Origin: an uncultured Verrucomicrobiota bacterium
Lineage (GTDB): Bacteria > Verrucomicrobiota > Kiritimatiellia > CAIQIC01 > Lenti-01
Assembly (NCBI GenBank): GCA_964567795.1
Contig: CAZMOR010000323.1
Location: 1-46,830, forward strand
Direction: 5' to 3'
DNA: 46,830 nucleotides
The notes beneath the pieces were generated by a model. It ran no database searches and was not told where the DNA came from. It saw only the letters and a program-made list of their open reading frames with translations. Made by a program: the position numbers and the translations under genes. Positions 1-45,325 of the stretch are shown piece after piece (within the stretch, counting starts at the first letter, position 1; every line of letters starts with the position of its first letter).

Positions 1-2
1 TC

Positions 3-3000: not shown

Positions 3001-6000
3001 TGATGACCAACAGCACGTGGAACCTGTCGTGGGACACGAACGGAACCAACACTCCCAATTACGTCGGCGTCACCGTGGTCACCGGTGGGGTGGCGCGGGC
3101 GGACTTCAGCTACTGGCGCTACGGCAGCTATGCGATCGGCGACACGCTGTATGTCGACTGGGACGGCAACGGCGTGCAGAGCAACGCATGGGAGGAGGGG
3201 ATCTCCAATATCACGGTGTATCTCTATGAAGACGCCAACAGCAACGGCGTGGTGGACCTTGCCACCGATGCGTTCGTCGCCTCCACGGTTACGGCCAGCA
3301 ACGGATATTACGTCTTCACCAATCTGTTCGCAACCAACACATACCTCGTCTACGTGGATCTCGCCGACCCGGACCTGCCGGCAAACTATCTCATCACGGG
3401 GGATCCGTACGGCGCCAAGGACGCGCGCAGCGTGGTGACCCTCACCAACGCCAGCAATTACGCCCAGGACTTTGGATTCCAGCCTTACGGGAGCGGCGCG
3501 ATTGGCGACACGGTCTGGCGGGACCTCAACGCCGACGGGACGCAGTCCGGCGCACAGGAGACCGGAATTTCCAACATTCTCGTCAGCCTGTACGTGGACA
3601 TGAACAAAGACAACAACTATGTGCTGCTGCGCACCACAAACACGAGTTCGAGCGGCACCTATCTGTTCAGTTCGCTGCCGGACGGGAACTACCGCGTGGT
3701 GGTGGATTCCGCCGATACTGACCTCCCGCAAGACGCCTTCGGCAACGTGTATTATCCCAGCACGGCCACGACCAACCAGGTGACCATCAGCGGCGGCAGC
3801 ACCTATCTGGACGCCGATTTCGGCTTTGCTCCCTACGGCGCCATCGGCGACACGGTGTTCTGGGACGCCAACCGCAACGGCACGCAGGATTACAGCGAGA
3901 GCGACGTATCCGGCGCGGTGGTGCGGCTCTACTACGACGGGAACGGCAACGGCATTTATGATCCGGGCGAGACGCTGGCGGCCAGCGCCACCACCGACGT
4001 GGACGGCCTTTATCTCTTTGAAGGCCTGCTGCCGAGCAACTACGTGGTGCTGGTGGTGACCACGAACGGCCCGCTGTTCGGAACGGCCCAGACCGCCGAC
4101 CCGAACTCGGACGGCTATGCCTGCGCCGACACCAACAACCTGGTGCCGTGCGACGACCAGTACGGGTTGTATCTGAACAACGGCCAGAACTTCATGGGCG
4201 CGGACTTTGGCTACGATCCGCCCGGCGTGATCGGCGACTACCTGTGGGTCGACACCGACAACGACGGTGTGCAGGATGCCGGCGAGAGCGGCATTCCCTA
4301 CATTTCAGTGGTGCTGTATTCCAACGGCGTGGCCATCGCCACCAACGAGACGGATGCGGACGGCTACTACTATTTCTCCGGCCTGGCCGACGGCACCTAC
4401 GGCGTGTGGGTGGTGACCAACGACACGGACTTTCCGGCCGGGCTCACGAACACCTGGGCCGCGGACGGCACGTTCGACAATTACGCAACCAACATCGTGA
4501 TTTCCGGCGGTTCCGTGGCCTCCGTGGGCGGATATCCCTGTACCGGCTGCGACCTGTCGATCGACTTCGGGTATCGCTATTCGGGCAACAACAGCCTGAG
4601 CGGGACCATCGGATTCGACGCGGCACCCTTCGACGGCGTGATGAACGGCACGAACACCAGCGGCGTCGCGGCCGGCGAGGCGGCCTATGCCGGGGTCTCC
4701 GTTTATCTGTACCTGTGGAACGACGACGGGGACGGCACCGTCGAGGCCGGGGAGTATGTCTCGATTGCGTCGACGGCCACCGCCACCAACGGCGACTATT
4801 CCTTCACGGGCCTGCCCAGCGGCGACGGCAACGACAAGTACATCGTCGCCAGCTCCGCGCCGGAGGATTACCTGAAGCTCACGACCACCAACGGCTCGAT
4901 CGCCGGGGTGGGCGTGGTCGAGACAACCAACACGGCGGGCAACACGGTTTCGGCCTACCTGACCGTCAACATCGCTCCGGTCATCACCGGCATGGACTTC
5001 GCCTACCGTTCCACGAAGAACTATGACTATGGCGATCTGCCGGAACGCTACCAGACCCTGCTGCCGGACGGGGCACGGCACATCGTCAAGACCTCGAACC
5101 TGTTCCTGGGGGCCACGGTGGACGTGGAGAACAATGGCCAGCCTTCCGCGGGTGCCAACGGCGACGACCTCGCCGGCACGGCCGACGAGGACGGGGTCGC
5201 CATGGTCACCAGCACGATGTGGCACGACGGCACCACCGGCGGCACCGTGCGCGTGACCGTGGGCGCGGGCTCCGGCTGGCTGGTCGGCTACGTTGATTTC
5301 AACAACGACGGTGATTTGCTGGATCCGGGCGAAATGGTTTGCAGCCTGGCGGTGTCGAACACCGGCGGCAACGGGGCGGGCGTCTATACGAACACGTTCG
5401 ATGTTCCGTACGGCACCTTCTCGACCGCCAACTCCACGTCGCTCTATGCACGGTTCCGACTGTTTCCGGCGGAACCGTTCAGCCCCGAGCTGGCGTTTTC
5501 GGGCACGGCCGACAATGGCGAAGTCGAGGATTATCTCTGGCACCTGTCCGTAGTCGGCGACTACGTCTGGATCGATTCCGACGGCGATGGTGCGCAGGAT
5601 GCGGGCGAGCCAGCGCTGGCGGGCGTACGGGTGTTCATTGACCTCAACGCCGATGGCCTCTACCAGACCAATGAACCGGCCGCGACCACCGGCGAGGACG
5701 GTCTTTACGGCATCGGCGGGCTGGTTCCGGGAACCTACACGGTGGCGGTAGACACCAACACGCTCCCGATCGGAGTTTCGCAGACCTACGATTTCGACGG
5801 CATCGGCACTGCGAACAAGGCTTCCATCACCATCGCCACCCTCGGCGAATTCGTGACGGTGGCCGACTTCGGCTACCGGGGCGACGCCACTGTCGGCGAC
5901 CGGGCGTGGTTCGACGCCGACCGCGACGGCATTCAGGACGCCGGCGAAACCAACGGCATCGCCGGACTGCCCGTCGCGCTGCTGGACGCAGCATCCAACG

Positions 6001-9000
6001 TGGTTGTCACGACCACCACCGATGCCTCCGGCAACTATCTGTTTGCCAACATTCCGGCCGGAACCTATCTGGTCCGGTTCGACCTGCGGACCGTGACGAC
6101 CAATGCGAGCGTCACGCTGCCTGATCAGGGTGGCGACGATGCCCTCGACAGCGATGCGACATCGGGCGGAACCGGCGGCTTTGCCTACACGGCTGCGTTT
6201 GCCGCCGGGGCGGGCTCGACCAATTTGACCATAGATCTGGGATTGCGCACAACCTCCACCACGCGCGCGGAAATCGCCGAAGTCTGGGGCGAAGCCGCGG
6301 GGAATGGCGGGCGCATTGTCTGGCGTACCGTTTCGGAATGGAATACGGCCGGATTTGTGGTCTACCGTATCGATCCGGCCTCAGGCGTGGAAGTGCGCTT
6401 GAACGACGTCCTGGTGCCGTCAGCTTTCAATGCGGACGGCGCCACCTATGAACTGGCTGATCCAGAAGCCGTGGCGGGCGGAACCGGCAATTACCGCTTG
6501 GAAGAAATGGAGCTGACTGGTGGCACGCGGGACCTGGGCGCGCAGGCCATCACCTTCGCCCCTGCGCGACCGCGGGCGAAGGCTTTGAAAACTCTGTTGT
6601 CCCGCGAGCAACTATCCACGCCCCGGTTGGCTGGACCTTCGCCGGTTCTGAAAGTTCTGGTGCGGAATGAAGGCCTATATGGCGTTTCTCTGCAGGCCAT
6701 CGCCGCGGGCATGGGTCTCGCCCGGGCGGACGTGCAGGCACTAGCGGAGGCCGGCTCCCTGGAGATTTCGGAACAGGGGAAGGCGGTGCCGGTGATCTAC
6801 GATGCCGCCCGCTCGCGGCTGGTGTTCTATGGCCAGGCGACGGACAACTGGTACACGCGGGACAATGCCTATCTGATCAAGCAAGGTGCCGCCGTTGTGA
6901 TGACGCGGCGGGACCCCGGCGCCGCGGCCGGTGCATCCGTGCTGCCGGCCGTCATGGACTTTGAGGTCGACAAGTATCCGTTTGATAGCGCGGCCATTCG
7001 GCCCGCCGACTTCTACTACTGGGAGTACATTCTCAGCGGGACCAATGCGGCGGCAACCAAAACCTTCCCGCTGGATTTGACGGGATGCGCTGGCGATGTA
7101 ATCCTGACTGTACGGCTGCAGGGGTGGTCCAGCACGACAAACGACCCCGACCATCTAGCGGAGTTCAAATTCAACGGCGCCGGAACGGGCGCAGTCACCT
7201 TCGACGGTCAGGCCGCGGCGACGGCGGAACTGGTGATTCCCGCCGCTTCGGTGTCCAACGGCGTGAACACGCTCTCCGTGAAAGGCACGCTGCTGCCGGG
7301 CCGCGCATTCAGCTATTTCGTAGTGGACGGGATGGAAGCCGCCTTTACCCGCATGGTGGTGCCGGGGGCCGGGACGGCGCATTTCCTGGCGAACGGCGCA
7401 GCGGTGTCGGCGGCAGCGTTTGCGGAACCCCTGGCGGTAGCGTTGGACGCCAACGGCGTTCCGACCTGGCTCGCGGACGCCAACGGCAACTTGCCCGCCA
7501 AGGCTTGGGCAGCAGCAGCGGGCGACGCGCGCTATGCGGTGGCGGAAGCCGATGGCATCCCGTCGCTGACCCCCGAAGCGGTTGCGCCGGCGCCGTGGTT
7601 CCTGGCCGCTACCAACCGCATCGATTATCTGGTTCTGACCTCGCGCGCGCTGGCGAACGAGGCGCAAAAACTGGCGGATTACCGGGCCGGACAGGGGTTG
7701 CGCACCGGCGTGGTGACGTTCGAAGATGCCTGTGACTGGATGGCGGACGGCTTGCGCACACCGGAAGCGATTCCGGCCCTGCTGGCCTATGCGTCTTCCG
7801 TCTGGGCCGAAGCGCCGTGGATGGTGGTGCTGGCGGGCAACGGCCATTACGACTATCTCCAAGCCTTGAGCAACGAAGTGAACCATCTGCCGCCGTTGAT
7901 GATCCAGACCGCGGACGGCATATTCTCCTCGGACAACCTGCTGGCCGATGCGGATGGCGATGGCCTGCCCGACGCCGCCATTGGCCGCTTGCCGGCCCGG
8001 ACGACCAACGAGTTGGCTACGATGATCGCGAAGATCAAGGCATACGAGACGGATTTTGGTTCGGCATGGCAGAACAAGCTGATGTGGGCGGCGGATACGA
8101 ACGATGCCGCGGCCGGGGATTTTGCAGCGGCCAATGCGCGGCTGGCTGCGCTGGCAGATCCCGGGCGCACGAGCGTGTCCGTTGATTTGAATCTGCAATC
8201 CACCAATGCGGCCAAGACCGCGCTTTTAAACGGCTTTAAGGAAGGTGCCGGATTCATCCACTACACCGGCCACGGTGGAGTGAACTTCTGGAGCCCGAAG
8301 AAGCTGCTGACCGCGACGGATGTCAATGCCATGACCAATACGCGGCAGCCGGTGGTTGCGGCGTTGAGCTGCCTGGTGGGGCGGTACGAAGCACCGGCCG
8401 TGGACAGCCTGGGGGAATTGCTGCTGCGTCGGGCCAACGGCGGTGCTGTCGCTGTTTGGGGGCCTTCCGGTCTGTCGCGCAACAATCCGGCGACGGAATT
8501 GGGTGCGGCGTTCTATCGGGCAATTCTCGAGAATGGCGCCGGGACGCTGGGGCTGGCCGTCCTGCAAGCCCGCCGCAGCCTCTTGGGTAATGTGTTCTCG
8601 AGGGACACGTTAGCGGTATACAATTTGCTGGGCGATCCGGCCTTGCGCATTGCCGGCAACCTCGGCGGACAAGCGGCCGATGCCAGTTTTGCACAATGGC
8701 GCTGGCAGCGCTTCAGCCCCGCCGAGCTCGCCGATGCCGGCATCAGCGGTGCAACCGACGGCAATTTCTTCGAATATGCGATGGCGGGCGGCTACGAGGT
8801 TACAGCCGAATTGCCGGAATTCGGATACCCGCTGGCCATGTCCCGGTCGGCGGATGAACCGGGATTCATTTTGCGTTGGAAACGGCGGATCCAGCGGGAT
8901 GACATTGATTACCGTTTGTTTATCTCGGAGGATTTGGCACAATGGACCACTGAGCCGGCGGATGCCCGGACCGTGGGTGTGGAGCCGGACCTGGATGGTG

Positions 9001-9080
9001 TGATGGAAACCGTGCGCACGCGGGTGGACCGCCCGCAAGCGACGCGTATTTTCATTGGGGTCCAAGCCGTTCGTAAATAG
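3..9080 (+). CDS. Giant secreted repeat protein (5-prime partial, >3020 aa) with DUF11-like, SdrD-B/Cna-B-like and GEVED modules and a C-terminal peptidase C25 (gingipain-like) domain
   Basis: The frame is open from nt 3 to the listed TTG at 18, so the gene almost certainly starts upstream of the window. DUF11-like segments are present (LEVNKTVDKPFAQPGETLSFTIAYTNPGPV; LTLVKTLTSTNAIREGQNITF). There are about ten SdrD-B-like units and a GEVED motif (NGEVEDY, about nt 5514-5534). The C25-type catalytic motifs are FIHYTGHGG (His codon 8271-8273) and VAALSCLVG (Cys codon 8370-8372). No PEP-CTERM-like tail is seen. Confidence 0.85.
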   Translation, partial: KPDDDLWLNYSIWATAMSGATPLEADETRTVTMRNEISAMANKIFPNGANKVPQEYLDALAMYEPSWTNTADDGSPGTVIATEGVWYDLGNVGAGFDNNGDLVPDRNAWLQPVGDPGLFDSSCFRLVHTYALVIVKLTDGTEQIYNVEDQLYFENIPEDNNGAVGYVRYEFMAMRPGCSSTLTPYQEVASGYDNEKFNGDYGAFLGQGLTSLDAHLEVNKTVDKPFAQPGETLSFTIAYTNPGPVTVGDPEGGAPLVMREHIPHGTLYVGLSSGASNSLPSGVSSYTILYSTNNGTTWQAAEPADPTKITDVQWWLSDPLATNVAGSVKLQVTVTTNAGPFITNQACATIAGGADMACDETTTYVSGTNRLGDLVWADNGAGGGVLGNQMQDGTETGISNITVWLYYDANTNGFYDASDLYYASNTTSTTGYYMFTNLPDGKFVAVVDMRDPDLPVGYTPTTFTNLAADLDSARTNSAAVSFLTADFGFAPALTLVKTLTSTNAIREGQNITFNLAVSNNLPGNGAGGTYATTYAWPTNGYAKNTEFIGWTNTLGAPDGLYCSNYITGSTTFMYLSNFVAASTQTGTITKVELVRQRLVVPSIDSDDTAVLLVQQLSPATVLFSNNLLIASMTNGFIVDVITNSITSWANFATNISISLNAKKNSGGAGSGYLGYDAIGFRITSVSTGGTGTASTTLNPVPLTDQYDADKFQFVSAVPPQSTSTTNGSTPNSTGTLYWANLGPIYPGGTSTVAVTFRLLKPESYTNMLATNITWVTNATFQNGVPANTATSSVVVTQAPAAKVGDYIWRDLNADGIQNETNMGIAYVAVSITPPAGIDLGNGAGAAITNFTDASGYYSFESIPATGVYTVRVVTATLPGGSGTNTFDEDGVRDHTHAVYLDIYSTPSSTNNVHLTTDFGYQTGTTIEGTIWHDYDHGMETNREAGEDWLTNVTVYLCASPSPCGPGASIATNTTTTNGYFRFTGAYTGSYTVLVATNTGMMTNSTWNLSWDTNGTNTPNYVGVTVVTGGVARADFSYWRYGSYAIGDTLYVDWDGNGVQSNAWEEGISNITVYLYEDANSNGVVDLATDAFVASTVTASNGYYVFTNLFATNTYLVYVDLADPDLPANYLITGDPYGAKDARSVVTLTNASNYAQDFGFQPYGSGAIGDTVWRDLNADGTQSGAQETGISNILVSLYVDMNKDNNYVLLRTTNTSSSGTYLFSSLPDGNYRVVVDSADTDLPQDAFGNVYYPSTATTNQVTISGGSTYLDADFGFAPYGAIGDTVFWDANRNGTQDYSESDVSGAVVRLYYDGNGNGIYDPGETLAASATTDVDGLYLFEGLLPSNYVVLVVTTNGPLFGTAQTADPNSDGYACADTNNLVPCDDQYGLYLNNGQNFMGADFGYDPPGVIGDYLWVDTDNDGVQDAGESGIPYISVVLYSNGVAIATNETDADGYYYFSGLADGTYGVWVVTNDTDFPAGLTNTWAADGTFDNYATNIVISGGSVASVGGYPCTGCDLSIDFGYRYSGNNSLSGTIGFDAAPFDGVMNGTNTSGVAAGEAAYAGVSVYLYLWNDDGDGTVEAGEYVSIASTATATNGDYSFTGLPSGDGNDKYIVASSAPEDYLKLTTTNGSIAGVGVVETTNTAGNTVSAYLTVNIAPVITGMDFAYRSTKNYDYGDLPERYQTLLPDGARHIVKTSNLFLGATVDVENNGQPSAGANGDDLAGTADEDGVAMVTSTMWHDGTTGGTVRVTVGAGSGWLVGYVDFNNDGDLLDPGEMVCSLAVSNTGGNGAGVYTNTFDVPYGTFSTANSTSLYARFRLFPAEPFSPELAFSGTADNGEVEDYLWHLSVVGDYVWIDSDGDGAQDAGEPALAGVRVFIDLNADGLYQTNEPAATTGEDGLYGIGGLVPGTYTVAVDTNTLPIGVSQTYDFDGIGTANKASITIATLGEFVTVADFGYRGDATVGDRAWFDADRDGIQDAGETNGIAGLPVALLDAASNVVVTTTTDASGNYLFANIPAGTYLVRFDLRTVTTNASVTLPDQGGDDALDSDATSGGTGGFAYTAAFAAGAGSTNLTIDLGLRTTSTTRAEIAEVWGEAAGNGGRIVWRTVSEWNTAGFVVYRIDPASGVEVRLNDVLVPSAFNADGATYELADPEAVAGGTGNYRLEEMELTGGTRDLGAQAITFAPARPRAKALKTLLSREQLSTPRLAGPSPVLKVLVRNEGLYGVSLQAIAAGMGLARADVQALAEAGSLEISEQGKAVPVIYDAARSRLVFYGQATDNWYTRDNAYLIKQGAAVVMTRRDPGAAAGASVLPAVMDFEVDKYPFDSAAIRPADFYYWEYILSGTNAAATKTFPLDLTGCAGDVILTVRLQGWSSTTNDPDHLAEFKFNGAGTGAVTFDGQAAATAELVIPAASVSNGVNTLSVKGTLLPGRAFSYFVVDGMEAAFTRMVVPGAGTAHFLANGAAVSAAAFAEPLAVALDANGVPTWLADANGNLPAKAWAAAAGDARYAVAEADGIPSLTPEAVAPAPWFLAATNRIDYLVLTSRALANEAQKLADYRAGQGLRTGVVTFEDACDWMADGLRTPEAIPALLAYASSVWAEAPWMVVLAGNGHYDYLQALSNEVNHLPPLMIQTADGIFSSDNLLADADGDGLPDAAIGRLPARTTNELATMIAKIKAYETDFGSAWQNKLMWAADTNDAAAGDFAAANARLAALADPGRTSVSVDLNLQSTNAAKTALLNGFKEGAGFIHYTGHGGVNFWSPKKLLTATDVNAMTNTRQPVVAALSCLVGRYEAPAVDSLGELLLRRANGGAVAVWGPSGLSRNNPATELGAAFYRAILENGAGTLGLAVLQARRSLLGNVFSRDTLAVYNLLGDPALRIAGNLGGQAADASFAQWRWQRFSPAELADAGISGATDGNFFEYAMAGGYEVTAELPEFGYPLAMSRSADEPGFILRWKRRIQRDDIDYRLFISEDLAQWTTEPADARTVGVEPDLDGVMETVRTRVDRPQATRIFIGVQAVRK
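1125..6240 (+). repeat. Tandem array of about ten diverged SdrD-B/Cna-B-like domain repeats (~110-125 codons each) inside the giant CDS
   Basis: A recurring protein-level unit starts near nt 1125, 2409, 2780, 3133, 3498, 3840, 4226, 4600, 5553 and 5890. The pattern is [AV][IV]GDxxWxDxNxDGxQ..E.G[IL]..[IV]xVxLY followed by TDxxGxYxFxxLxxGxYxV. The array is interrupted by the GEVED-containing segment at about 5020-5540. The repeats are diverged at DNA level and the boundaries are approximate. Confidence 0.7.
7620..8651 (+). other. Peptidase C25 (gingipain/PorU-type cysteine peptidase) domain of the giant CDS
   Basis: The domain runs from IDYLVLTSRALANEAQKLADYRAGQGL through GRLPARTTNELATMIAKIKAYE, HYTGHGG (His) and ALSCLVGRYE (Cys), and ends at LLGDPALRI. 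Order and spacing are as in C25-family enzymes. Boundaries are approximate. Confidence 0.75.
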
Positions 9081-9085
9081 GAAAG

Positions 9086-9379
9086 ATGAACACGTCCAGC
9101 ACATACCGGATAAAAGGCCGGGTCGTCCTGCGCCGGATTGGCGAAGACCGCCTGCTGGTGCCGGTGTCGGGCGATGCCGCACGCGAAAATTGCGTGTTTC
9201 CGATCAATGAAACCGGCGAGTTCATCTGGGAACACTTGACGCAAGGCCTGCCCCTCGACCAAGTCGCGCAAGCTTTGGCGGCTGCGTTTGAGGTGTCACC
9301 TGCGGAAGCGCTATCCGATTGTCGCCAATTCGCGGGCGACCTGCTGGCCCAGCACCTGCTGGAAGAGGTTGGGCCATGA
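9086..9379 (+). CDS. PqqD-family protein (RiPP recognition element / peptide chaperone)
   Basis: The product is 97 aa with a typical PqqD pattern: VLRRIGEDRLLVP...FPINETGEFIWEHLTQGLPLDQVAQALAAAFEVSPAEALSDCRQFAGDLLAQHLL. It starts 5 nt after the giant-gene stop (TAG 9078-9080). Its stop overlaps the next ATG (ATGA at 9376-9379). Confidence 0.85.
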   Translation: MNTSSTYRIKGRVVLRRIGEDRLLVPVSGDAARENCVFPINETGEFIWEHLTQGLPLDQVAQALAAAFEVSPAEALSDCRQFAGDLLAQHLLEEVGP

Positions 9380-10473
9380 TCTGTCCCATGAGCGATGCCG
9401 CAACATTGGAATGGACCGCCGGTTTCCGTGCCCGGGCGGCAAAAGCCCGCATGCCGATTGCCGCCACGTTGGAATTGACCCGACGCTGCAACTTGCGCTG
9501 CACGCACTGTTATCTGGGCAACCAGGCGGAGCAGCATCTGCGGCGTGGCGCTGAACTCGGAACCGAGGCTGTGAAGTCGGCCTTGTCCGAGTGGGCCGAG
9601 GCCGGCTGCCTATACCTCACCCTGACGGGTGGCGATCCGATGCTGCGCCCGGATTTTGCCGAGATCTACCGGCACGCGCGGGAACTGGGGCTGGTGGTCT
9701 CTGTTTTCTGCAACGGGACGTTGGTGACGGACGAAGTGGTTGCCTTGTTTCGCGAGTGGCCGCCACGCAAGGTGGAGGTCAGCCTTTATGGTGCGACGCC
9801 GGCAGTTCATGAGGCCATCACCGGGGTTCAGGGTTCGCACGCGCAGGCCTGGGCGGGGATTCGCCGCCTGCAAGCGGAGGGAATCCGGGTCGAGTTGAAG
9901 ACCATGTTGATGACAACGAACCGGCATGAGACCGAAAAAATGAGACGCCAGGCCGAGGCCGCCGGCTTGAACTTCCGCCATGATGCGGCCCTTTTCCCTT
10001 GCCTGGATGACGGCTCCGTCCGGCCGCTGGAATTCCGGGTTGCGCCGGCCGAAGCGGTTTGCGAGGACCTGGCGACACCTGAACGGCGCCGGAACTGGCA
10101 GGAAAGAATTGCTCGGACCGCTGGCCATGCCGAGGATGAGCGCCTGTACACCTGTGCCGCCGGCCTGACGGCTTTCCATGCCGATCCCTTTGGGGGGCTG
10201 TCGCCTTGCCTGATGGCGGTTGATTACATGTGCCGGCCGAATGAGCGGTCCTTCCGCGAGATTTGGAACGGCGAATTGAAAGCCATCCGGGAGCGCCGGC
10301 GAACGCATTCGGGGGGAAGTTTCAGTGGCCCCTTGCGCGGCGCCTGCACCCATTGCCCGGCCTTCAACCGCCTGGAAACCGGCGACGAAGAACGGGATTC
10401 CGACTACATGCAGCAAACCACTTTGTTGAGATACGAGGCGGCCATGCGCGCCGAAGATAGTGAGAAGACATGA
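9376..10473 (+). CDS. Radical SAM enzyme with C-terminal SPASM/twitch-like auxiliary-cluster region (putative peptide maturase)
   Basis: CNLRCTHC is a CX3CX2C motif (Cys codons 9487, 9499, 9508). LTLTGGDPMLRP is a GGEP-like motif. The C-terminal region has CAAGLTAFHADPFGGLSPC (CX13GX4C) and then ACTHCPAF (CX2C). I chose the ATG at 9376 (ATGA overlap with the PqqD stop) over the TTG at 9319 given in the ORF track. An ATG at 9388 is an alternative start. Confidence 0.85.
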   Translation: MICPMSDAATLEWTAGFRARAAKARMPIAATLELTRRCNLRCTHCYLGNQAEQHLRRGAELGTEAVKSALSEWAEAGCLYLTLTGGDPMLRPDFAEIYRHARELGLVVSVFCNGTLVTDEVVALFREWPPRKVEVSLYGATPAVHEAITGVQGSHAQAWAGIRRLQAEGIRVELKTMLMTTNRHETEKMRRQAEAAGLNFRHDAALFPCLDDGSVRPLEFRVAPAEAVCEDLATPERRRNWQERIARTAGHAEDERLYTCAAGLTAFHADPFGGLSPCLMAVDYMCRPNERSFREIWNGELKAIRERRRTHSGGSFSGPLRGACTHCPAFNRLETGDEERDSDYMQQTTLLRYEAAMRAEDSEKT

Positions 10474-10652
10474 ACCCAACGACCCGATATTCAACCAACA
10501 GCGATGAACAACCGGTCCGGCGGCCTTACGAGAAGCCGGAGATCAAGCGTGTCGACCTGGCCATGGCCGAAACCCTGTCGCAGGGATGCAAGCTGGAGTC
10601 GGACAACGCCTGTGTCGGGCCGCCGATCACGGCCTATGAGGGAGGTTCGTGA
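10470..10652 (+). CDS. Candidate RiPP precursor peptide (60 aa)
   Basis: Sequence: MNPTTRYSTNSDEQPVRRPYEKPEIKRVDLAMAETLSQGCKLESDNACVGPPITAYEGGS. Its start shares ATGA with the rSAM stop (10470-10473) and its stop shares GTGA with the kinase start (10649-10652). It carries a YEKPEI leader-like motif, two Cys and a C-terminal Ser. I recognise no homology; the call rests on position, coupling and motif anatomy. Confidence 0.6.
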   Translation: MNPTTRYSTNSDEQPVRRPYEKPEIKRVDLAMAETLSQGCKLESDNACVGPPITAYEGGS

Positions 10653-11560
10653 GACCGGCCGGTCATTTGAGCATCGGTCCGGTACGCTTTGAGCTACGAA
10701 CGCCAGACCAGGCTGAAGTGCGGTATTCCGCTCCGGCCTATGCGGGATTTTTCTCCACTTCCGGGGCGGTTGCGGGGTTGGCGCCGCTGCTGGAAATGCA
10801 GGTGGAAATCTCAGCGCGAGCGGAGGCCATTCCGACCAAGCCACCGCTGTGGAGTGGGGGAAAAAACTGGGCGATTTGGGAGGACGGTTCAGAATTGATC
10901 TGTTGCGCGGGATTCCACGGCCGGGAAAAGGCCCGTTATCGATGCCGGCTGGCTCGCGACCTCCGGTCTGCCGCATTAGCTGTTGATCCGCAGTTCTACC
11001 CCGCCGATTATTTGGAATCGCCTTTAACATATCCGCTCGATCAGATTTTGTCGTGGGGGCTGCTTTCACGCCTGGGCGGAACCGTGATGCATGCCGCGGT
11101 AGCCGTGCGCGCGGGAGTTGGCCTGGTGTTTACCGGCCGGAGCGGAGCCGGTAAATCCACGATCTCGGCGCTATGCCATGCGGCCGGCTGGCGGATCCTG
11201 AATGATGACCGGGTCATGGTATATCGGCGAAACGATGCCTGGAGAGTGGCGGGAACGCCGTGGCACGGGTCCGGGCGTTTCGCCGAGGCTGATGATCTTC
11301 CGCTGGGGGGGATATATTTTCTGCAGCAAGCGCCCGAAGACCGCATGGAAACGATGACCGCATCCGAATCCCGCCTGGCCCTGTTGGACGTGGCCGGGGT
11401 CCCGTGGTTCGAAAACAGCTGGTCACAGGGGGTGCTGGAAGGCTTGGCCAAGCTCGTTCGGGATGTCGAAATGCGCCGCTTTTCATTCACCAAATCAGAA
11501 ACAGCCGTCAAGGTTGTTGCGGACGATCAAGAATCCGTCCGGGCAGGTAAATGTGCATGA
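10649..11560 (+). CDS. HprK C-terminal-domain-like P-loop kinase (HprK-related kinase)
   Basis: MHAAVAVRAGVGLVFTGRSGAGKSTISALCHAAGWRILNDDRVMVY closely parallels the HPr kinase/phosphorylase catalytic core (H-G-x-x-v...GxSGxGKS...G..L..DD). The P-loop lies at about nt 11134-11160. It uses a GTG start overlapping the peptide stop. The product is 303 aa. Confidence 0.8.
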   Translation: MRPAGHLSIGPVRFELRTPDQAEVRYSAPAYAGFFSTSGAVAGLAPLLEMQVEISARAEAIPTKPPLWSGGKNWAIWEDGSELICCAGFHGREKARYRCRLARDLRSAALAVDPQFYPADYLESPLTYPLDQILSWGLLSRLGGTVMHAAVAVRAGVGLVFTGRSGAGKSTISALCHAAGWRILNDDRVMVYRRNDAWRVAGTPWHGSGRFAEADDLPLGGIYFLQQAPEDRMETMTASESRLALLDVAGVPWFENSWSQGVLEGLAKLVRDVEMRRFSFTKSETAVKVVADDQESVRAGKCA

Positions 11561-12063
11561 ACAATTTGGCGAAGAGAGAGAAGCGTCAAACGAAACGGCC
11601 GCATGACGAATCTCAACTGCCCCATCCAGCGGCTGCGAGGGGTATCGAGGCGGCAAATTTTTCCATCGCGGCAAACCCATTCTGCAAGCCCCAAAATATT
11701 CTCCAAGTCAACCCACTCGCCACCTGTACAGGCCGCATCACCGGCCATAAAAAGCCGGTTTGTTCGTTTCTTGTTAATTGCGATTCTATGCAGTGCAAAT
11801 CTTCCACAAGTTTTATACAATACGATGCTTCCAAGGTGGAGTGTGCAATTCGCCAAAGGTTTAATCGATACGGTTTCTCCATTTTGGATGGTTGGATTCA
11901 TGCTCGGGCCCAAAGCTTGAAAGCGTACAGGGGTATCGGAGCGCAGAAGCGTTTCGACGATATCACGAGCGACTGGTGCAGGCGGTGACATGTTCCAAGC
12001 GAAGAAGGTATAGCAGGCCATGAACAAGACAAGCATCGTTTTCCAGGCGGGCTGCGCCGCCAT
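11527..12063 (-). CDS. S26-family signal-peptidase-like protein, ER/SipW-type (Ser/His)
   Basis: There is an N-terminal hydrophobic anchor (KTMLVLFMACYTFFAW). ALGPSMNPTI carries the Ser nucleophile (codon 11902-11904). GSIVLYKTCGRFALHRIAI has His where bacterial P-type SPases have the Lys of the KR motif (His codon 11788-11790). G+C is visibly lower than in the neighbours. The start is ambiguous: ATGs at 12063, 12036, 12021 and 11991, the first three overlapping the divergent gene that starts at 12020. The 3-prime end overlaps the kinase 3-prime end by 34 nt. Confidence 0.7.
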   Translation of the reverse strand: MAAQPAWKTMLVLFMACYTFFAWNMSPPAPVARDIVETLLRSDTPVRFQALGPSMNPTIQNGETVSIKPLANCTLHLGSIVLYKTCGRFALHRIAINKKRTNRLFMAGDAACTGGEWVDLENILGLAEWVCRDGKICRLDTPRSRWMGQLRFVMRPFRLTLLSLRQIVHAHLPARTDS

Positions 12064-13909
12064 GATGTGGCTGGCTGGTTCCGCGCCGGTCTTGGCGGCC
12101 TTGCCGACCGGTGAAGCTGTCGTGGCCGCAATGACCGGGCAGGCTCAGGTGCGGGTTTTCACCGGTCCCGTGCATGAGGGCCGGACGGAAGTGAAGGACC
12201 TTTTCGAAGGCGCATCGGTGGGGGAGACCAGTCGGATCATGACCGGTCGGGATGGGCGTTTGTGCATGGTGTGTTCACCCGGGGCCATCCTGTGCGTGGC
12301 GCCGAACACCGAATTTACGATTCAGCAATTGCGCCACACGGCGGAAGGCTTGCCCCGGAACGGAGAGGATTTGATCCGGCGCATTCATTTGGATTTGCAC
12401 AAAGGCCGGCTTCGCGTACATGCCGGGGTGCCCACCGCCACCCTGGATATTCAGGTGGAAACCCCGGCCGGTAGTGTTGTCGCCCAAGGCGGCTCATTTA
12501 TCGTGGCGCAGGATGAGCGTGGAGTATGGCATGTGTCGAGCGAGGCCTATGATCAGGAAGTCATTCCGCGCGGAAACGCACGCACGGCATTGAAGGCGGG
12601 CACTTCCATCCACTTTGCCGGCGGCGAGGCCGGGGGCGACATGGTGGTGCCAGAAGCCGTCGGCGAGCAGGCCGGCCTCTACCAATTCGAACTATGCAGC
12701 TCCTTTTTCCAGGATCTCGAACCTTTTGTGCTCTCGGATCGGCCGTTTGACCGGCAGGGGCTTGATGAATACCTGGGGTCCGGGCGTTCCCTGTCGGTTG
12801 CGGATGATGGCGCCCTGGTGACCGATGTGAGCCCGTCGATCCGGCCCTCCGTGGCGGCAACCCTGCCGGGAAAGCTCCCGCCATTCCCGGAAACCGGGGC
12901 CGGCATGCGTTGGGCGGAGCCGCGCATCTGGAAGTGGTTCGACGAAATCGGTCCCGTGAAGGGCGTCAATTACATTCCGCGCACGGCCGTGAATTCAGTA
13001 GAGATGTGGATGAAAGACACATTTGATCCCCAGACGATTGATCAAGAGCTGGGGTGGGCGCATGACGCTGGCTATACCGCCATCCGCGTCCAGCTGCAGT
13101 ATGCCGTTTGGCAGCATGATCCAGATGGATTCCGCGACCGGGTGGAACAATTGCTGCGGCTGGCGGCGAAGCACGGCCTGCGGGTTGTCCCGGTTCTTTT
13201 CGACGACATGAATTTGGCGGGCCAGGCGCCGGCGTTCGGAACACAACCGGAACCTGTGCCGGGCGTATATAATTCGCGGTGGGTGCCGAGTCCCGCTCCG
13301 GAAGAAGTCAAGAGCCGGACAAGCTGGCCGGAATTGGAAGAATACGTCAAGGACATGGTCGGCAAGTTCCGCCGGGATCAACGCGTGTTGTATTGGGATC
13401 TGTATAACACCGCGGGCAACAGCGGGCTCGGCGAGGAGTCCTTGCCGCTCATGGACCAGGCTTTCGGTTGGGCCCGGGAACAGGAACCGTCCCAGCCCCT
13501 GGCCGTGCCGGCTTGGAATGAGTTCGGCAGTGCCATGACGGCGCACCAATTGGAACGCTCCGATTTGGTTACCTTCCACAGTTTCGATACCGCGGAGGGC
13601 ATGGAGGCCCGGATTCAGCTTTTACAGCGCTATCACCGGCCGATCATCTGCTCCGACTGGCTGATGCGTCAAACCGGTTGCGATTTCAAGTCCGTGCTGC
13701 CGATCTTTGCCGCCAACGGGGTGGGCTGGTTCAACCAGGGGTTGGTCAACGGCAAAACCCAGCTGGGGGTTCAACAGGAGCAATATCGTTCGGAAGCAGA
13801 TCCGGATCTCTGGCAGCAGGATGTTTTGAAGGCGGATGGAACTCCCTATAACGCCCGGGAAGTGGAGCTGATCCAGGGCTTCCGGTATCTGGATGTGCCC
13901 AACCGATGA
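12020..13909 (+). CDS. Secreted fusion protein: N-terminal FecR-like domain plus C-terminal clan GH-A-like (TIM-barrel glycosidase-like) domain
   Basis: A signal-peptide-like N-terminus is present (MNKTSIVFQAGCAAMMWLAGSAPVLAALP). The FecR-like pattern is GASVGETSRIMTGRDGRLCMVCSPGAILCVAPNTEFTI. The C-terminal half (KGVNYIPRTAVNSVEMW...GYTAIRVQL...VLYWDLYNTAGN...RPIICSDWLMR) resembles proteins annotated as cellulase-family or 1,4-beta-xylanase-like. The family assignment is from memory only. Confidence 0.55.
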   Translation: MNKTSIVFQAGCAAMMWLAGSAPVLAALPTGEAVVAAMTGQAQVRVFTGPVHEGRTEVKDLFEGASVGETSRIMTGRDGRLCMVCSPGAILCVAPNTEFTIQQLRHTAEGLPRNGEDLIRRIHLDLHKGRLRVHAGVPTATLDIQVETPAGSVVAQGGSFIVAQDERGVWHVSSEAYDQEVIPRGNARTALKAGTSIHFAGGEAGGDMVVPEAVGEQAGLYQFELCSSFFQDLEPFVLSDRPFDRQGLDEYLGSGRSLSVADDGALVTDVSPSIRPSVAATLPGKLPPFPETGAGMRWAEPRIWKWFDEIGPVKGVNYIPRTAVNSVEMWMKDTFDPQTIDQELGWAHDAGYTAIRVQLQYAVWQHDPDGFRDRVEQLLRLAAKHGLRVVPVLFDDMNLAGQAPAFGTQPEPVPGVYNSRWVPSPAPEEVKSRTSWPELEEYVKDMVGKFRRDQRVLYWDLYNTAGNSGLGEESLPLMDQAFGWAREQEPSQPLAVPAWNEFGSAMTAHQLERSDLVTFHSFDTAEGMEARIQLLQRYHRPIICSDWLMRQTGCDFKSVLPIFAANGVGWFNQGLVNGKTQLGVQQEQYRSEADPDLWQQDVLKADGTPYNAREVELIQGFRYLDVPNR

Positions 13910-15180
13910 GAAGGACCCGGCTCATCTCAGGCCTCTTCGCCGCGATGGCGGTGGCGGATTCTGTCACCGTTTGGGCTGCCAGCGACAGCTATGCCTCTGG
14001 ATTCTATACGCGGGGAGTGGCGGCGGCGGCCAACATTGACCAGGGCAGCGCGGTGATGGAACCCTTCTATATTCCGGCCCCGACCGGGGCGCTGCTGCCG
14101 CGCATCAGCCTGGCGGTGGAACAGGATGACAATGTTTTCCTCGACCCGACCAATGCAACCGCCAATACCACGATCTCGCTGGTCCCCGGACTTTTGGGGA
14201 TCTACGGCCGGCCCACGGCCAACCATCTATATGCCGACTACGGCATGATCATTCCTGTATATGAAAGTGAAGACGGGCTAAGCGACCGCCCCAGCTATCT
14301 TCTGCGTCTGGGCGGTGTCTATCAAACGGGCAAAAGCCAGATCGCTGCCCAGGGCGGATATCGGCGCATCGAGGATGTGGACACGGTGGTGGGTGCGCGT
14401 ATAGCCAAGCAGGACTGGCTTGGTGAATTCGGGGTGGAAAGCCGGATCACGGGCAAATCCAGCCTCGGCCTGCAAGGCCGGGCCGAGGCCCATGTGTTTG
14501 ATGATGCCTTGTATATTGATTACAACCGCTACTATGGCGCCGGGCGGTTGTATCACCGGGTTTCCGCCAAGAGCCAGGCGTTCATCCAGGGTGGCGTGGG
14601 TCGCGATGACCCGCAGGACTCCACCGGCACCGCTGCGGCCGCCGATTTCTACGACCTGTCCCTGGGGGTGCGGGGTAAACAATCCCCCAAATTCAATTCT
14701 ACCGGCCGCGTGGGATATATGTGGCGGAATTATGACGAAGAGGACCGCGGGGATTATTCCCATTGGATTGCCTCCCTGCAGGCGGAAAGCACGCCTTTCG
14801 GCCTGACCACTTTTTCCGGCGAGGTCCTGGCCGATATCCGGCCAGCCATTGATTCCGCGGACACGGATGTGATTGACCAGGGCCTTGTGCTGGGTGCCGC
14901 CCGGCGGCTGTTTATCGAGCGGCTGCGGGGCAATCTCTCGGCGACGCTCGGGCAAATTGATTATTCCGGCGCACGAGATTCGGAATCCGAAAACGGCCGT
15001 ACCGATCGCTACTGGGGATTCTCCGCCGGGGTGGATTGGTGGACCAAACAGCGCTTTTCGCTGGGACTGGCTTATTCCTACATGCGGCGAGAGGGCAGTG
15101 TGGATGCGGATCAGGCGACACAAGATGCCACTTCCTACGAAGTGGGCCGCTGGACCGTGCGCGCGAGCTGGAACTATTGA
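13906..15180 (+). CDS. Outer-membrane beta-barrel protein associated with polysaccharide export
   Basis: It has a signal peptide (MRRTRLISGLFAAMAVADSVTVWA) and alternating-polarity strand-like segments throughout (Y/G/R-rich). The C-terminal WTVRASWNY ends in an aromatic residue, as in OMP beta-signals. The start overlaps the upstream stop (ATGA at 13906), and the gene lies directly upstream of wza/wzc. Confidence 0.65.
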   Translation: MRRTRLISGLFAAMAVADSVTVWAASDSYASGFYTRGVAAAANIDQGSAVMEPFYIPAPTGALLPRISLAVEQDDNVFLDPTNATANTTISLVPGLLGIYGRPTANHLYADYGMIIPVYESEDGLSDRPSYLLRLGGVYQTGKSQIAAQGGYRRIEDVDTVVGARIAKQDWLGEFGVESRITGKSSLGLQGRAEAHVFDDALYIDYNRYYGAGRLYHRVSAKSQAFIQGGVGRDDPQDSTGTAAAADFYDLSLGVRGKQSPKFNSTGRVGYMWRNYDEEDRGDYSHWIASLQAESTPFGLTTFSGEVLADIRPAIDSADTDVIDQGLVLGAARRLFIERLRGNLSATLGQIDYSGARDSESENGRTDRYWGFSAGVDWWTKQRFSLGLAYSYMRREGSVDADQATQDATSYEVGRWTVRASWNY

Positions 15181-15232
15181 CCGCCTGTATTCCGGCATTC
15201 CCATGCAGCCGCGTTTTTGCTAGAAATACAAC

Positions 15233-15904
15233 ATGGAACGGCATTGGTTCAGGACAATCATCGGCGCAAGTGTTTTGGGTTTATGGGCGGCCTGTGCGCC
15301 GGGATGCGCCCATGCGCCGGTGCCGCTGCCGCCGGAGGCCTCCCTGACCCGCGCGGAGGCGGCGCCCGGTGCGCAGGTGATGACAAATACCGCCCCCCGG
15401 GAATATGCCCTGCAGGCCGGGGACGAGATTGATTTGCAGGTTTATCGCGAACCGGACATGTCGGGGACTTTCAAGATCAGCCCTTCCGGCGAGATCCGCC
15501 ATTCCCTGATCGGTACCGTGCCGCTGGTCGGGAAAACCCTGGAAGAGGCGGAAGCCTATATCACCAAGAAGCTGGGGAAGGACTATTTAGTCAATCCCCG
15601 GGTGGTCATCAAGCTGCTCTCCACCCAGAGCTCCCAGATTGTCGTCATGGGGGAAGTGGAAAAGCCTGGAGTTTATCCCTTGCCTCCGGGGGAGCCCATG
15701 ACCCTTTTGCAGGCGATTGCGGTTGCCGGCGGGTTCACCGAACTGGCAAGTCCAGACCGGGTTCGGATCGTCCGCCGCCTGGAGGGCGGCCGCCAGACCA
15801 CCCTCAAAGTTCGTGTTTCGGATCTTTTGGGCGGCAAGGGCCGGCAACAAGACCTGTCCTTGGAACCGAATGATGTAATCATGGTTCCGGAAGTGGTTTT
15901 TTAA
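15233..15904 (+). CDS. wza: Polysaccharide export protein, Wza/Poly_export + SLBB type
   Basis: EYALQAGDEIDLQVYREPDMSGTFKISPSGEIRHSLIGTVPLVGKTLEEAEAYITKKL..YLVNPRVVIKL is Poly_export-like. VVMGEVEKPGVYPL...TLLQAIAVAGGFTELASPDRVRIVR is SLBB-like. Confidence 0.85.
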   Translation: MERHWFRTIIGASVLGLWAACAPGCAHAPVPLPPEASLTRAEAAPGAQVMTNTAPREYALQAGDEIDLQVYREPDMSGTFKISPSGEIRHSLIGTVPLVGKTLEEAEAYITKKLGKDYLVNPRVVIKLLSTQSSQIVVMGEVEKPGVYPLPPGEPMTLLQAIAVAGGFTELASPDRVRIVRRLEGGRQTTLKVRVSDLLGGKGRQQDLSLEPNDVIMVPEVVF

Positions 15905-15919
15905 GGAGGCCGGACAGCC

Positions 15920-19398: not shown

Positions 19399-20227
19399 GG
19401 GCGGCCCAGAATACATCCGGCAGCCGGATCGCGGTTGGTTTGATCTGGCCCTGGGTGAACTGTGGACCTATCGCGATCTCTTGTGGACCCTGGTCTGGAG
19501 AAATCTGACGGTGCGCTATAAGCAAAGCGCGGTCGGCATCGCTTGGGCGGTGATCAAGCCGGTTCTGCAAATGCTGGTTTTCAGCGTGGTGTTCGGCCGT
19601 TTGGCTGGGTTGCCATCCGAAGGTATGCCGTATCCCGTTTTCCTGTATGCCGGGTTGCTGCCCTGGACCTATTTTTCATCGACCATCACCAGTGCGTCCG
19701 GCAGTTTGCTTGCCGGCGGCAACATGATCAACAAGGTGTACTTTCCCCGGATGATCCTGCCGTTTTCATACCTGTTTACGAGTCTCATCGATCTTTTCCT
19801 GGCCATGCTGGTGCTGCTGGCCATGATGTTCTGGTACCGGGCGGACATGACGTTTGGCCCGCAGATGCTGCTGTTTCCGGTGTTTCTCGTGCCGGCCGTT
19901 GTGTTCGCCGGCGGCCTATCCTTGTGGCTGTGTGCCTTGGCGGTGAAATATCGCGACATCCACCATCTGGTTCCCTACCTGCTCCAGATCGGCATGTTCA
20001 TCACGCCGGTGGTTTATGCCGTGAAATTGCTGCCCGCGCGTTATCAGTGGCTTTTGGAACTGAATCCCATGACCGGCGTCATTGAAGGTTTTCGCTGGTC
20101 CTTGCTGGGCAAACCGGTGACCGACTGGGGCCTGCTGTGCCTGGGTTTTGCCCTGGCTTTGCTGCTGCTGTTGACGGGCATGGTGTATTTCCGGCGCGTG
20201 GACCGGACCTTGGCGGATGTTGTATGA
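19391..20227 (+). CDS. wzm: ABC-2 type polysaccharide exporter permease (Wzm/KpsM/TagG-like)
   Basis: LWTYRDLLWTLVWRNLTVRYKQSAVGIAWAVIKPVLQMLVF is the canonical ABC-2 N-terminal motif, followed by six hydrophobic segments. The gene overlaps the upstream gene by 8 nt. Confidence 0.85.
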   Translation: MTRGGPEYIRQPDRGWFDLALGELWTYRDLLWTLVWRNLTVRYKQSAVGIAWAVIKPVLQMLVFSVVFGRLAGLPSEGMPYPVFLYAGLLPWTYFSSTITSASGSLLAGGNMINKVYFPRMILPFSYLFTSLIDLFLAMLVLLAMMFWYRADMTFGPQMLLFPVFLVPAVVFAGGLSLWLCALAVKYRDIHHLVPYLLQIGMFITPVVYAVKLLPARYQWLLELNPMTGVIEGFRWSLLGKPVTDWGLLCLGFALALLLLLTGMVYFRRVDRTLADVV

Positions 20228-41089: not shown

Positions 41090-41223
41090 TAAAGCGCTTG
41101 TGCCCGGGTTGCCGGGCGGCGTCAATCCCAAAGACGCTTATTGTCTATCGCAAGACCTTACTCGCTGGCGCGGCCGGCCGGCGGCCCCCATGCGGGGGCT
41201 CGTGGCTCATGCTCCAACGCCGG

Positions 41224-41279
41224 TTTTTCCACACAATGGAAAAACTTTCAGGAATTTTTCCACACAATGGAAAAACTTT
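41224..41279 (+). repeat. Perfect 25-nt direct repeat (two copies, 31-bp period)
   Basis: tttttccacacaatggaaaaacttt occurs at 41224-41248 and again at 41255-41279, separated by caggaa. Confidence 0.9.
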
Positions 41280-42508: not shown

Positions 42509-42533
42509 ATATGAGTGCGGCGGGGGCCGGGAT

Positions 42534-45319: not shown

Positions 45320-45325
45320 GCAGTC

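Follow-up and report, generated by a model that had tools for sequence, protein, structure and literature searches.

What is a gene for a 60-aa peptide doing between those of a radical S-adenosylmethionine (SAM) enzyme and an HprK-like kinase? The question is raised by positions 9086-12063 of contig CAZMOR010000323.1, from an uncultured Verrucomicrobiota bacterium (assembly GCA_964567795.1); the 46,830-nt stretch of this contig that was analysed is here called the window. An initial annotation, made from the letters of the DNA, had proposed that four chained genes form a pathway for a peptide that is made by ribosomes and modified after translation (RiPP), and a conserved precursor family that stands beside radical SAM/kinase pairs in other genomes supports this. 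On balance we favour, with moderate confidence, a ribosomal-peptide maturation cassette built on the core of two known systems, the linear polyphosphorylated peptides (LPP) of Bacillota (Popov et al., Nat Commun 2026, PMC13381572) and the paeninodin-type lasso peptides, with a radical SAM enzyme added. The genes in question are the following.

9086-9379, + strand: PqqD-family protein, 97 aa (PF05402, E 1e-12, above the gathering score)
9376-10473, + strand: radical SAM enzyme, 365 aa, start ATG 9376 (PF04055, E 5e-24)
10470-10652, + strand: precursor peptide gene, 60 aa (70 homologues; third-position bias; no NCBIfam or Pfam match)
10649-11560, + strand: ScmC-family HprK-like P-loop kinase, 303 aa, GTG start (PF27840 on homologues; GRSGAGKST ... 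NDD)
11527-11991, - strand: Sec11/SipW-type (S26B) serine peptidase, about 154 aa, predicted leader peptidase (catalytic boxes; SEC11A/C profile match)

The four forward-strand genes are chained by 4-nt start-stop overlaps (ATGA at 9376, ATGA at 10470 and GTGA at 10649), which were verified in the window sequence as the initial annotation had given them. The overlap of peptide and kinase genes is also present in L001, L021 and L023 (loci from other genomes carry L numbers). Equally sound were the CX3CX2C motif placed at 9487-9510 (C38, C42 and C45), the 60-aa open reading frame (ORF) and the 303-aa kinase with its GRSGAGKST...NDD core. Among the Pfam models suggested for these proteins, PqqD and Radical_SAM match above threshold, while SPASM and Hpr_kinase_C stay below it. 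The S26 gene had been described as convergent and abutting; it is convergent, but it more than abuts, since it lies tail to tail with the kinase gene and the two 3′ ends overlap by 34 nt (11527-11560; 31 nt in L021 and 34 nt in L023). Its likely start is ATG 11991 (154 aa), in an ORF that stays open to 12063.

Whether the 60-aa ORF is a gene at all comes first; no NCBIfam or Pfam model matches its product. A database search for homologues gave 70 matches of 47-63 aa, most of them 60-61 aa. In pairwise comparison with four relatives, DNA differences are concentrated at codon position 3; between the window and L021 they number 2, 3 and 24 at the three codon positions, and 22 synonymous stand against 5 non-synonymous codons. 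The gene keeps its place between the radical SAM and kinase genes in L001, L021, L022, L023 and L028. Because of the 70 homologues, the third-position bias and the kept position, the ORF is a real gene, one that on these sequence comparisons is under purifying selection.

In the homologue alignment residues 1-16 are variable, while the residues given in RxPYxKP...RVDLAxAETLSxGCKL..D..C.GPP.T...GS are conserved at 90% or more; in full the conserved stretch reads R-x-P-Y-x-K-P-x-h-K-R-V-D-L-A-h-A-E-T-L-S-x-G-C-K-L-x-x-D-x-x-C-V-G-P-P-h-T-A-x-E-G-G-S. The C-terminal Gly-Ser is present in 71 of the 72 aligned sequences, and the Cys pair has the form CX7C in 66 sequences, CX5C in the other six. In the window peptide the leader motif R-x-P-Y20-x-K-P-x-h lies at 10521-10544 and E34-T35, the predicted cleavage site, at 10569-10574. 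The predicted 25-aa core is L36-S60 (10575-10649), with C40 at 10587-10589, C48 at 10611-10613 and the terminal S60 at 10647-10649. Ser37 (core +2) is substituted in some members (ETLGGGCKL; ETLATGCK in L028) while the C-terminal Ser is retained, which favours Ser60 as the target of the kinase.

There is no second precursor copy in the window. The 474-kb contig of L021 holds two different precursor homologues, P0146 and P0150 (61 aa and 51 aa), so some genomes hold a second copy apart from the cassette. Gene calling of the precursor is uneven: the 61-aa ORF at 7819-8004 of L024 (GCA_012511885.1, a Lentisphaerae metagenome-assembled genome) is uncalled in the NCBI annotation and is called in the ENA annotation of the near-identical contig L023.

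Does the short gene accompany these enzymes elsewhere? Loci were gathered by a contig scan with the kinase alignment (at least 20 loci, one of them a close relative) and by fetching close relatives singly, and the cassette genes in them were scored by tblastn and phmmer. PqqD, radical SAM enzyme and ScmC-like kinase occur together in 21 loci, with hosts in Kiritimatiellia/Lentisphaerae/'Verrucomicrobia UBA1418', Acidobacteriota (Acidoferrum, Terriglobales, Vicinamibacteria), Planctomycetota/Pirellulales, Thiolapillus, Thermomonas and Clostridia. Candidate precursors were found in 20 of the 21 loci, from at least five phyla: those of Kiritimatiellia type (the window, L001, L021-L024, L028) and of Acidobacteriota type (L002-L004, L025, L026, L029), and those of Thiolapillus (L006), Planctomycetota (L008, L010), Thermomonas (L011), Clostridia (L013, L014) and Vicinamibacteria (L015). 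The initial annotation had staked its proposal on a short ORF with a YxxPx[LI] motif being kept beside radical SAM/kinase pairs, and such an ORF is there in the Kiritimatiellia-type loci and in Acidobacteriota, Planctomycetota, Gammaproteobacteria and Clostridia.

All 20 precursor loci have in common a (K/R)PYxxPx[ILV] leader and at least two core Cys, with an E-[T/A] pair 13-16 residues past the Tyr and two to four residues ahead of the first Cys. The two Cys are the only core residues common across phyla. A C-terminal Ser is found in 19 of the 20 loci, for example in the precursors of Acidoferrum (...EAVLGHCKIPGASGPTTGSCSSLFCRTLGS) and Thermomonas (...ACGKVSTTQNSCRTNQKNS) and in the three tandem precursors of Pirellulales, which end AAS, SSS and VES. 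Some loci depart from the common layout. Clostridia L014 (2909-5558, 5710-6774) has four candidate precursors and a kinase-PqqD fusion; Pirellulales L010 (3537-4052, 5812-6954) has, with its three tandem precursors, the kinase and S26 domains in one ORF. In L007, a triad of kinase, PqqD and S26 that has no radical SAM gene, no precursor was found, and this triad is not confirmed as an LPP cluster.

The PqqD-family protein is predicted to be the RiPP recognition element (RRE) that binds the leader of the 60-aa peptide. Among curated families it comes closest to two of lasso-peptide RREs (NF033530 and NF033536, neither of which it matches above cut-off), and its matches in the PDB are weak and to lasso RREs only, TbiB1 (5v1u, E 0.13) and 9x90 (E 0.5).

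The radical SAM enzyme falls outside the curated families. NCBIfam scores are far below cut-off (AhbD 108, MftC 97.3, NirJ 96, PqqE 80.9 and AlbA 74 bits), and the solved structures that match best are those of SkfB (6efn, E 7e-15, residues 23-280) and PqqE (6c8v). The initial annotation had seen C-terminal motifs for auxiliary clusters. C260, C278, C324 and C327 are indeed kept, but the SPASM region is degenerate (Pfam match 17.8 against a threshold of 21.5 bits): the first two Cys of CX2CX5CX3C are replaced by S315 and G318, and there is no Cys downstream. One auxiliary cluster, in a degenerate, twitch-like SPASM, is for this reason more likely from the sequence. Cys260, Cys278 and Cys327 are present in 17 of 17 homologues and Cys324 in 15 of the 17. 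The first one or two Cys of the motif are gone throughout the Kiritimatiellia clade, both in the window enzyme, whereas Acidobacterial relatives have the full CX2CX5CX(2-3)C and a Cys-rich tail.

The kinase has an N-terminal beta-rich domain and a P-loop domain, with H148, a P-loop at G163-T171 (11135-11161, including K169) and D186-D187. That it is HprK-like, as first annotated, stands: a PDB profile search gave HprK/P (2qmh and 1jb1, E 8e-6), with His, P-loop and DD aligned to those of L. casei HprK/P, and the AlphaFold2 model (pLDDT, the predicted local distance difference test, 92.5) has PEPCK and HprK/P as its Foldseek matches. H148 and the P-loop with K169 are invariant, and an acidic residue of DD is retained, down to relatives of 19-25% identity. 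In lasso-peptide kinases a His-Lys-Asp-Asp motif is essential, and the Ser that these enzymes phosphorylate is the conserved one at the C-terminus of the linear precursor (PMC9266682); H148, K169, D186 and D187 correspond to that motif.

The family that the initial annotation tentatively named for the kinase, TIGR04352/TIGR04355, is not the right one. Membership was rejected at 36.8 and 31.4 bits against cut-offs of 200, in a scan in which a positive control, the protein of L018 (Allosphingosinicella), reached 257.7 bits for TIGR04352. All homologues of the kinase instead carry PF27840 'ScmC' (precomputed on the 97%-identical P0001), a recent Pfam entry, and the family is large, with 582 representative clusters at E <= 1e-30. 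The NCBIfam model ScmC itself (TIGR04249) gave 34.7 bits against a cut-off of 125, and a homologue search with a diverse kinase alignment reached no protein named ScmC.

The S26 gene proved to be more than the neighbour it had been taken for: an S26 domain is present in 17 of the 21 radical SAM/kinase loci, which makes it a conserved core member of the cassette. Across 11 homologues the G-x-S-M-x-P, H-R and G-D boxes do not vary, a pattern also seen in an alignment of 10 sequences, and a PDB profile search with the family gave human SEC11A (7p2p, E 9e-7) and SEC11C, with the Ser, His and GD boxes aligned. TIGR02228 (sigpep_I_arch) matches with E 7e-7 at 29.2 bits, below its cut-off of 51.85. 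The gene is convergent in Kiritimatiellia-type loci and elsewhere runs co-directionally 3′ of the kinase gene. The notion that the ORF is an antisense artefact was rejected on its conservation at the protein level, the invariant catalytic boxes and the co-directional copies in other phyla.

An N-terminal membrane anchor is missing from most S26 members and, given a start at ATG 11991, from the window protein. In L002, L003, L004, L026 and L029 a giant protein carries the S26 domain at its own N-terminus, ahead of a signal-like transmembrane segment, and this position would put the domain on the cytoplasmic side. These fusions (L002 6383-12702, L003 6728-12735, L004 6683-8685, L026 8097-12617 and L029 7731-9767) are of 667 to more than 2100 aa within the DNA analysed and run in the order S26, signal-peptide-like transmembrane segment, extracellular repeats. 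Through such fusions and the changes of orientation the peptidase keeps its link with the cassette. In the LPP pathway a SipW-like archaeal-type signal peptidase, LppS, was shown experimentally to be an RRE-dependent leader peptidase (PMC13381572). By likeness to LppS, the S26 protein of the window is probably a leader peptidase as well.

What surrounds the cassette bears on what its product might do. The neighbouring features are these; neither the NTP_transf_5 gene nor the link to the giant protein had been taken up in the initial annotation.

1-9080, + strand: giant surface protein, at least 3020 aa, 5′-truncated by the window (SdrD_B, GEVED and Peptidase_C25 domains)
12020-21486, + strand: FecR-like protein, porin, Wza, Wzc, Wzy_C and Wzm/Wzt (Pfam matches)
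39986-41131, - strand: NTP_transf_5 (PF14907) nucleotidyltransferase-like gene (PF14907, E 2e-30)

The giant protein has nine SdrD_B repeats (E 1e-126), GEVED and, at residues 2537-2878, a C-terminal Peptidase_C25 domain (E 5e-70); its ORF is open from base 3, bases 3-17 being free of in-frame stops. A gap of 5 nt separates its stop from the PqqD start, and the L021 counterparts of the two genes share a 4-nt overlap. A homologous giant gene adjoins the cassette in L001, L021-L024, L015 and L025. It is there in all fully sequenced Kiritimatiellia-type loci, the contig of L028 having just the 3′ end of the upstream gene. The giant protein is a probable operon partner of the cassette. Giants with C25 and SdrD_B or CLIPPER repeats lie at 1-6435 in L021, 8061-12221 (- strand) in L015 and 8163-15158 in L025; the CLIPPER giant of L026 has no C25 match. 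For the window C25 domain the best solved structure is PorU (6za2, E 2e-15), a sortase of the type IX secretion system, whose matching segments align with the retained catalytic motifs of His (YTGHGG) and Cys (ALSCLVG). Unlike PorU, the domain makes up the C-terminal portion of a repeat protein longer than 3000 aa; it is linked to the peptide by neighbourhood only, and no type IX secretion genes are among the window ORFs scanned (the Pfam domain scan of the window, to which this and later statements about scanned ORFs refer, covered 30 large ORFs).

On its other side the cassette heads an exopolysaccharide (EPS) locus: a FecR-like protein of 629 aa, a BBP2_2 porin, a Wza-like exporter, Wzc-like and Wzy_C proteins and the ABC-2 pair Wzm/Wzt, followed to about 40 kb by glycosyltransferases, a methyltransferase and acyltransferases. 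The downstream gene order is the same in L001, L021, L022, L023/L024 and L028. The secreted-looking, weakly FecR-like 629-aa protein and the porin (12020-15180, + strand) always lie 3′ of a Kiritimatiellia-type cassette, before Wza/Wzc. EPS genes recur elsewhere, with Wzc-like genes in L008, L012, L014 and L015. The only transporters among the scanned window ORFs are the ABC-2 Wzm/Wzt pair and an AI-2E transporter.

An association of the NTP_transf_5 gene with the cassette is suggestive. In Pirellulales L010 the cassette is followed, about 2.2 kb downstream, by a homologue; the 65% identical relative in L027 has the same Acyl_transf_3, GT4 and WecA neighbours; and a metagenome scan with this protein found one contig, whose 7.8 kb do not extend far enough to include a cassette.

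Further observations concern the region at large. A sigma-70 promoter scan of 8800-12400 gave no match, and terminator-like hairpins of the same region are at chance number. A hairpin with a T-run at 11740-11759 (+ strand), about 180 nt past the kinase stop, lies inside the antisense S26 gene. Between the probable start of the S26 gene and the divergent FecR-like gene there are only about 28 bp, which leaves the S26 promoter no place outside coding sequence. GC content is 0.56 at 11-12 kb against about 0.62 in the flanks. Large ORFs without a Pfam or NCBIfam match are at 30650-32305 (+), 41207-42886 (-), 43921-45336 (+) and 44015-46636 (-); in the GC-rich 41-46.8 kb, long ORFs overlap and the strand assignment is ambiguous.

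How would such a cassette work? The PqqD-like RRE would hold the 60-aa precursor by its PYxKPx[ILV] leader motif. The SkfB-like radical SAM enzyme would then modify the core, the likeliest outcome being a thioether cross-link from C40 and/or C48. Next the ScmC/HprK-like kinase would phosphorylate a Ser, for which Ser60, as in paeninodin, is the best candidate and Ser37 the alternative. The anchor-less S26 peptidase, helped by the RRE, would cut after E34-T35 and release a modified peptide of about 25 residues. Last, the NTP_transf_5 protein may extend or decorate the phosphate, a possible tailoring of the phosphorylated peptide for which PsmN, which decorates the phosphate in pseudomycoidin (PMC9266682), is a precedent.

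Several points weigh against this scheme. Every chemical step, the order of the steps and the biological role are ones that we infer from the gene set and its conservation, the precursor family and its motifs, and the folds and catalytic motifs of the proteins. Likeness to LppK, LppS and LppB appears to be at the level of fold and motif, with scores for curated families far below cut-off, and the top NCBIfam scores of the radical SAM enzyme are to non-peptide enzymes (AhbD and NirJ), over the N-terminal core. A thioether is proposed for its economy only: the acceptor residues differ from clade to clade, and the outcome could also be a disulfide, an epimerisation or a C-terminal decarboxylation (as by MftC). 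No precursor was found in L005, and the four candidates of L014 are without a C-terminal Ser. In the window ORF scan no MsbA-type or other dedicated peptide exporter adjoins the cassette, and 28 kb separate the cassette from the NTP_transf_5 gene, which is on the opposite strand at the far end of the EPS locus. For a RiPP, moreover, the core varies unusually little, as would suit a housekeeping peptide more than an antibiotic.

That last point meets the strongest of the rival explanations, by which the product is a secreted antimicrobial, a sactipeptide- or ranthipeptide-like bacteriocin that is also phosphorylated, and the EPS and giant genes are incidental neighbours. A radical SAM enzyme with an auxiliary cluster, an RRE and a Cys-bearing precursor are hallmarks of those classes, and SkfB is the best structural relative of the enzyme. 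LPP and paeninodin clusters, moreover, are patchy in a way that resembles horizontal gene transfer and is, according to the LPP authors, typical of genes in biological conflict (PMC13381572). Yet a conserved leader and a variable core are the usual pattern, and here it is the reverse: the core is near-invariant in the 70 homologues while the N-terminal 16 residues vary. Neither an immunity gene nor a dedicated exporter adjoins the cassette, the synteny of C25 giant, FecR-like protein, porin, Wza and Wzc is kept in seven Kiritimatiellia-type loci (in L028 with the 3′ end of the upstream gene only), and peptidase and giant surface protein form one fused chain in Acidobacteriota-type loci. An antimicrobial is thus unlikely in our judgement.

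The same fusions can be turned to another account, in which the locus holds two unrelated modules: PqqD, radical SAM enzyme and peptide would be a RiPP unit, the S26 protein the signal peptidase of the giant protein (as SipW is for TasA), and the kinase would have a protein or an intermediate of EPS synthesis, and not the peptide, as its substrate. Dedicated signal peptidases of the SipW type are known, the match of the ScmC fold to PEPCK is a match to a kinase of small molecules, and the locus is rich in EPS genes. We regard this as distinctly improbable. The 4-nt overlap of kinase and peptide genes is conserved, and the kinase co-occurs with radical SAM enzyme, PqqD and peptide in loci such as L010, L011 and L013, where tblastn with the window EPS proteins gave at most an ABC-ATPase-like match. 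The C-terminal Ser in 19 of 20 loci also needs explaining, and the precedent of the lasso kinases explains it (PMC9266682). An anchor-less S26 protein, and a cytoplasmic placement of the domain in the fusions, would be on the wrong side for a signal peptidase, whereas LppS is a demonstrated RRE-dependent leader peptidase (PMC13381572).

The weakest alternative, a redox cofactor precursor like that of pyrroloquinoline quinone (PQQ) or mycofactocin on which PqqD and the radical SAM enzyme would begin and which kinase and peptidase would trim later, has in its favour the pair of PqqD and PqqE-like enzyme, a PqqA-like leader (YxKPxh...E-T), the place of MftC and PqqE among the better full-length or partial matches and a high core conservation that suits a cofactor, but it is very unlikely given scores well below cut-off for PqqE (TIGR02109, 80.9 against 381 bits) and MftC (TIGR03962, 97.3 against 265 bits), an RRE nearest to lasso RREs, Cys and a C-terminal Ser rather than a Glu/Tyr or Val/Tyr pair as the cross-phylum residues, an envelope/EPS rather than a redox context, and no PqqB/C/F- or MftD/E/F-like genes or dependent dehydrogenases among the window ORFs scanned.

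We thus return to a peptide maturation cassette, the product of which probably acts in the cell envelope, together with the C25 giant and the exopolysaccharide machinery, both of which are inherited along with the cassette. An envelope or biofilm role fits better than an antibiotic one because of the S26-giant fusions, the near-invariant core and the recurring EPS genes. Speculation can be carried further, to a form that we put forward with considerable doubt: the C-terminally phosphorylated, cross-linked peptide, perhaps extended by NTP_transf_5, might be a structural or biogenesis element of the envelope, as a primer, anchor or adaptor joined by a phosphodiester to EPS and/or handled by the PorU-like C25 domain, and not an antibiotic. 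If so, the assembly of capsule or adhesins would, in several Gram-negative phyla, include radical SAM RiPP chemistry as a conserved component, and the presence of LPP and paeninodin clusters in the capsule loci of Bacillota would be accounted for. Short of that, the association with polysaccharide export across phyla, the coupling to C25 giants and the peptidase-giant fusions point to envelope and biofilm biology over antibiosis, and the uncharacterised ScmC family (PF27840) gains a concrete candidate precursor family, with a YxxP leader, an E-[T/A] junction, two Cys and a C-terminal Ser.

It remains to set the cassette beside the systems already described. The initial annotation knew of no characterised class with this combination. 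For a radical SAM enzyme with an HprK-like kinase there is none: our literature search found no paper on an HprK-like kinase with a radical SAM/SPASM enzyme, and the one paper that names an HPr kinase, radical SAM enzymes and RiPPs together speaks of the kinase in lasso clusters only. The set of RRE, HprK-like kinase, archaeal-type peptidase and NTP_transf_5, on the other hand, is that of LPP (PMC13381572).

Sactipeptide and ranthipeptide maturases (SkfB, AlbA, CteB) and QhpD resemble the window system in their auxiliary Fe-S domain, dependence on an RRE and Cys-bearing core. They differ in that the window enzyme matched no curated family and has no fused N-terminal RRE, in the added kinase and S26 peptidase, and in the conserved core. 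Compared with a full seven-Cys SPASM domain, the window enzyme has CX3CX2C but only four auxiliary Cys, while the Acidobacterial relatives keep the full motif. The HprK-related kinase A system (TIGR04352) likewise has an HprK-like P-loop protein beside a PqqD-family protein; at its L018 locus no radical SAM homologue was detected.

SynChlorMet (TIGR04249-04251; ScmC, ScmE and ScmF) comes nearer in gene content, with a PqqD homologue, a PqqE-like radical SAM/SPASM enzyme and a ScmC-family protein. The window has one radical SAM enzyme and not two, and the scores are low (84.2 and 84.5 against 400 bits for ScmE and ScmF, 34.7 against 125 for ScmC). The description of SynChlorMet, which exists in databases only and is the sole earlier one of a set of PqqD, radical SAM/SPASM and ScmC proteins, includes neither an S26 peptidase nor a precursor with a C-terminal Ser, and we found no literature on the system. 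To our knowledge, the TIGRFAM text identifies no precursor for it.

Paeninodin-type lasso peptides (with PadeK, ThcoK, SyanK and PsmK/PsmN) have the HprK-like kinase and the C-terminal Ser in common with the window. In the window, leader removal is predicted to be by S26 and a radical SAM enzyme stands in place of macrolactam formation. As the initial annotation had said, there is no lasso cyclase (Asn-synthetase-like), B2 protease (transglutaminase-like) or PqqB/C domain in the 30 large window ORFs. Paeninodin clusters, like those of LPP, lie in capsular polysaccharide loci (PMC13381572).

The closest comparison is with LPP. There the leader of LppA, YxxPxVLxHQxIxFET, is cleaved after T-1, the HprK-like kinase LppK polyphosphorylates Ser3 of the core, LppB is a discrete RRE, and the set, in capsular polysaccharide loci, further has an MsbA-type pump and an NTP transferase (PMC13381572). 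In the rows of the LPP domain table considered here the NTP transferase is NTP_transf_5 and the peptidase TIGR02228 (PMC13381572). The authors describe the clusters as restricted to Bacillota and the biological role of the peptides as still unknown (PMC13381572). A discrete PqqD-type RRE, an HprK-like kinase and a polysaccharide locus are alike in the two systems, and so is the spacing of the window Y20...E34-T35 and the LPP Y...E-T. Along the LPP junction, YxxPxVLxHQxIxFETxxS, the window peptide keeps Y20, P23, [I]25, E34 and T35 in register, has other residues in place of H-Q and F and carries its Ser at +2 and not +3. Different too are the two-Cys core, the invariant C-terminal Ser, the absence of MsbA (TIGR02203) from the scanned window ORFs, the linked C25 giant, the NTP transferase gene 28 kb away and, above all, the coupled radical SAM gene: the LPP product is linear and phosphorylated at core Ser3, the word 'radical' does not occur in the LPP paper, and Radical_SAM is not in the rows of its domain table considered here (PMC13381572). 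Apart from the MsbA pump, no LPP core function appears to be missing from the window, homology being at the level of fold and motif, and a radical SAM enzyme comes on top. A pathway of RRE, HprK-like kinase, SipW-type peptidase and NTP_transf_5 that was thought to be confined to Bacillota would thus extend to Kiritimatiellia-type bacteria of the PVC (Planctomycetes-Verrucomicrobia-Chlamydiae) group, Acidobacteriota, Planctomycetota and Gammaproteobacteria, and would there include a radical SAM step.

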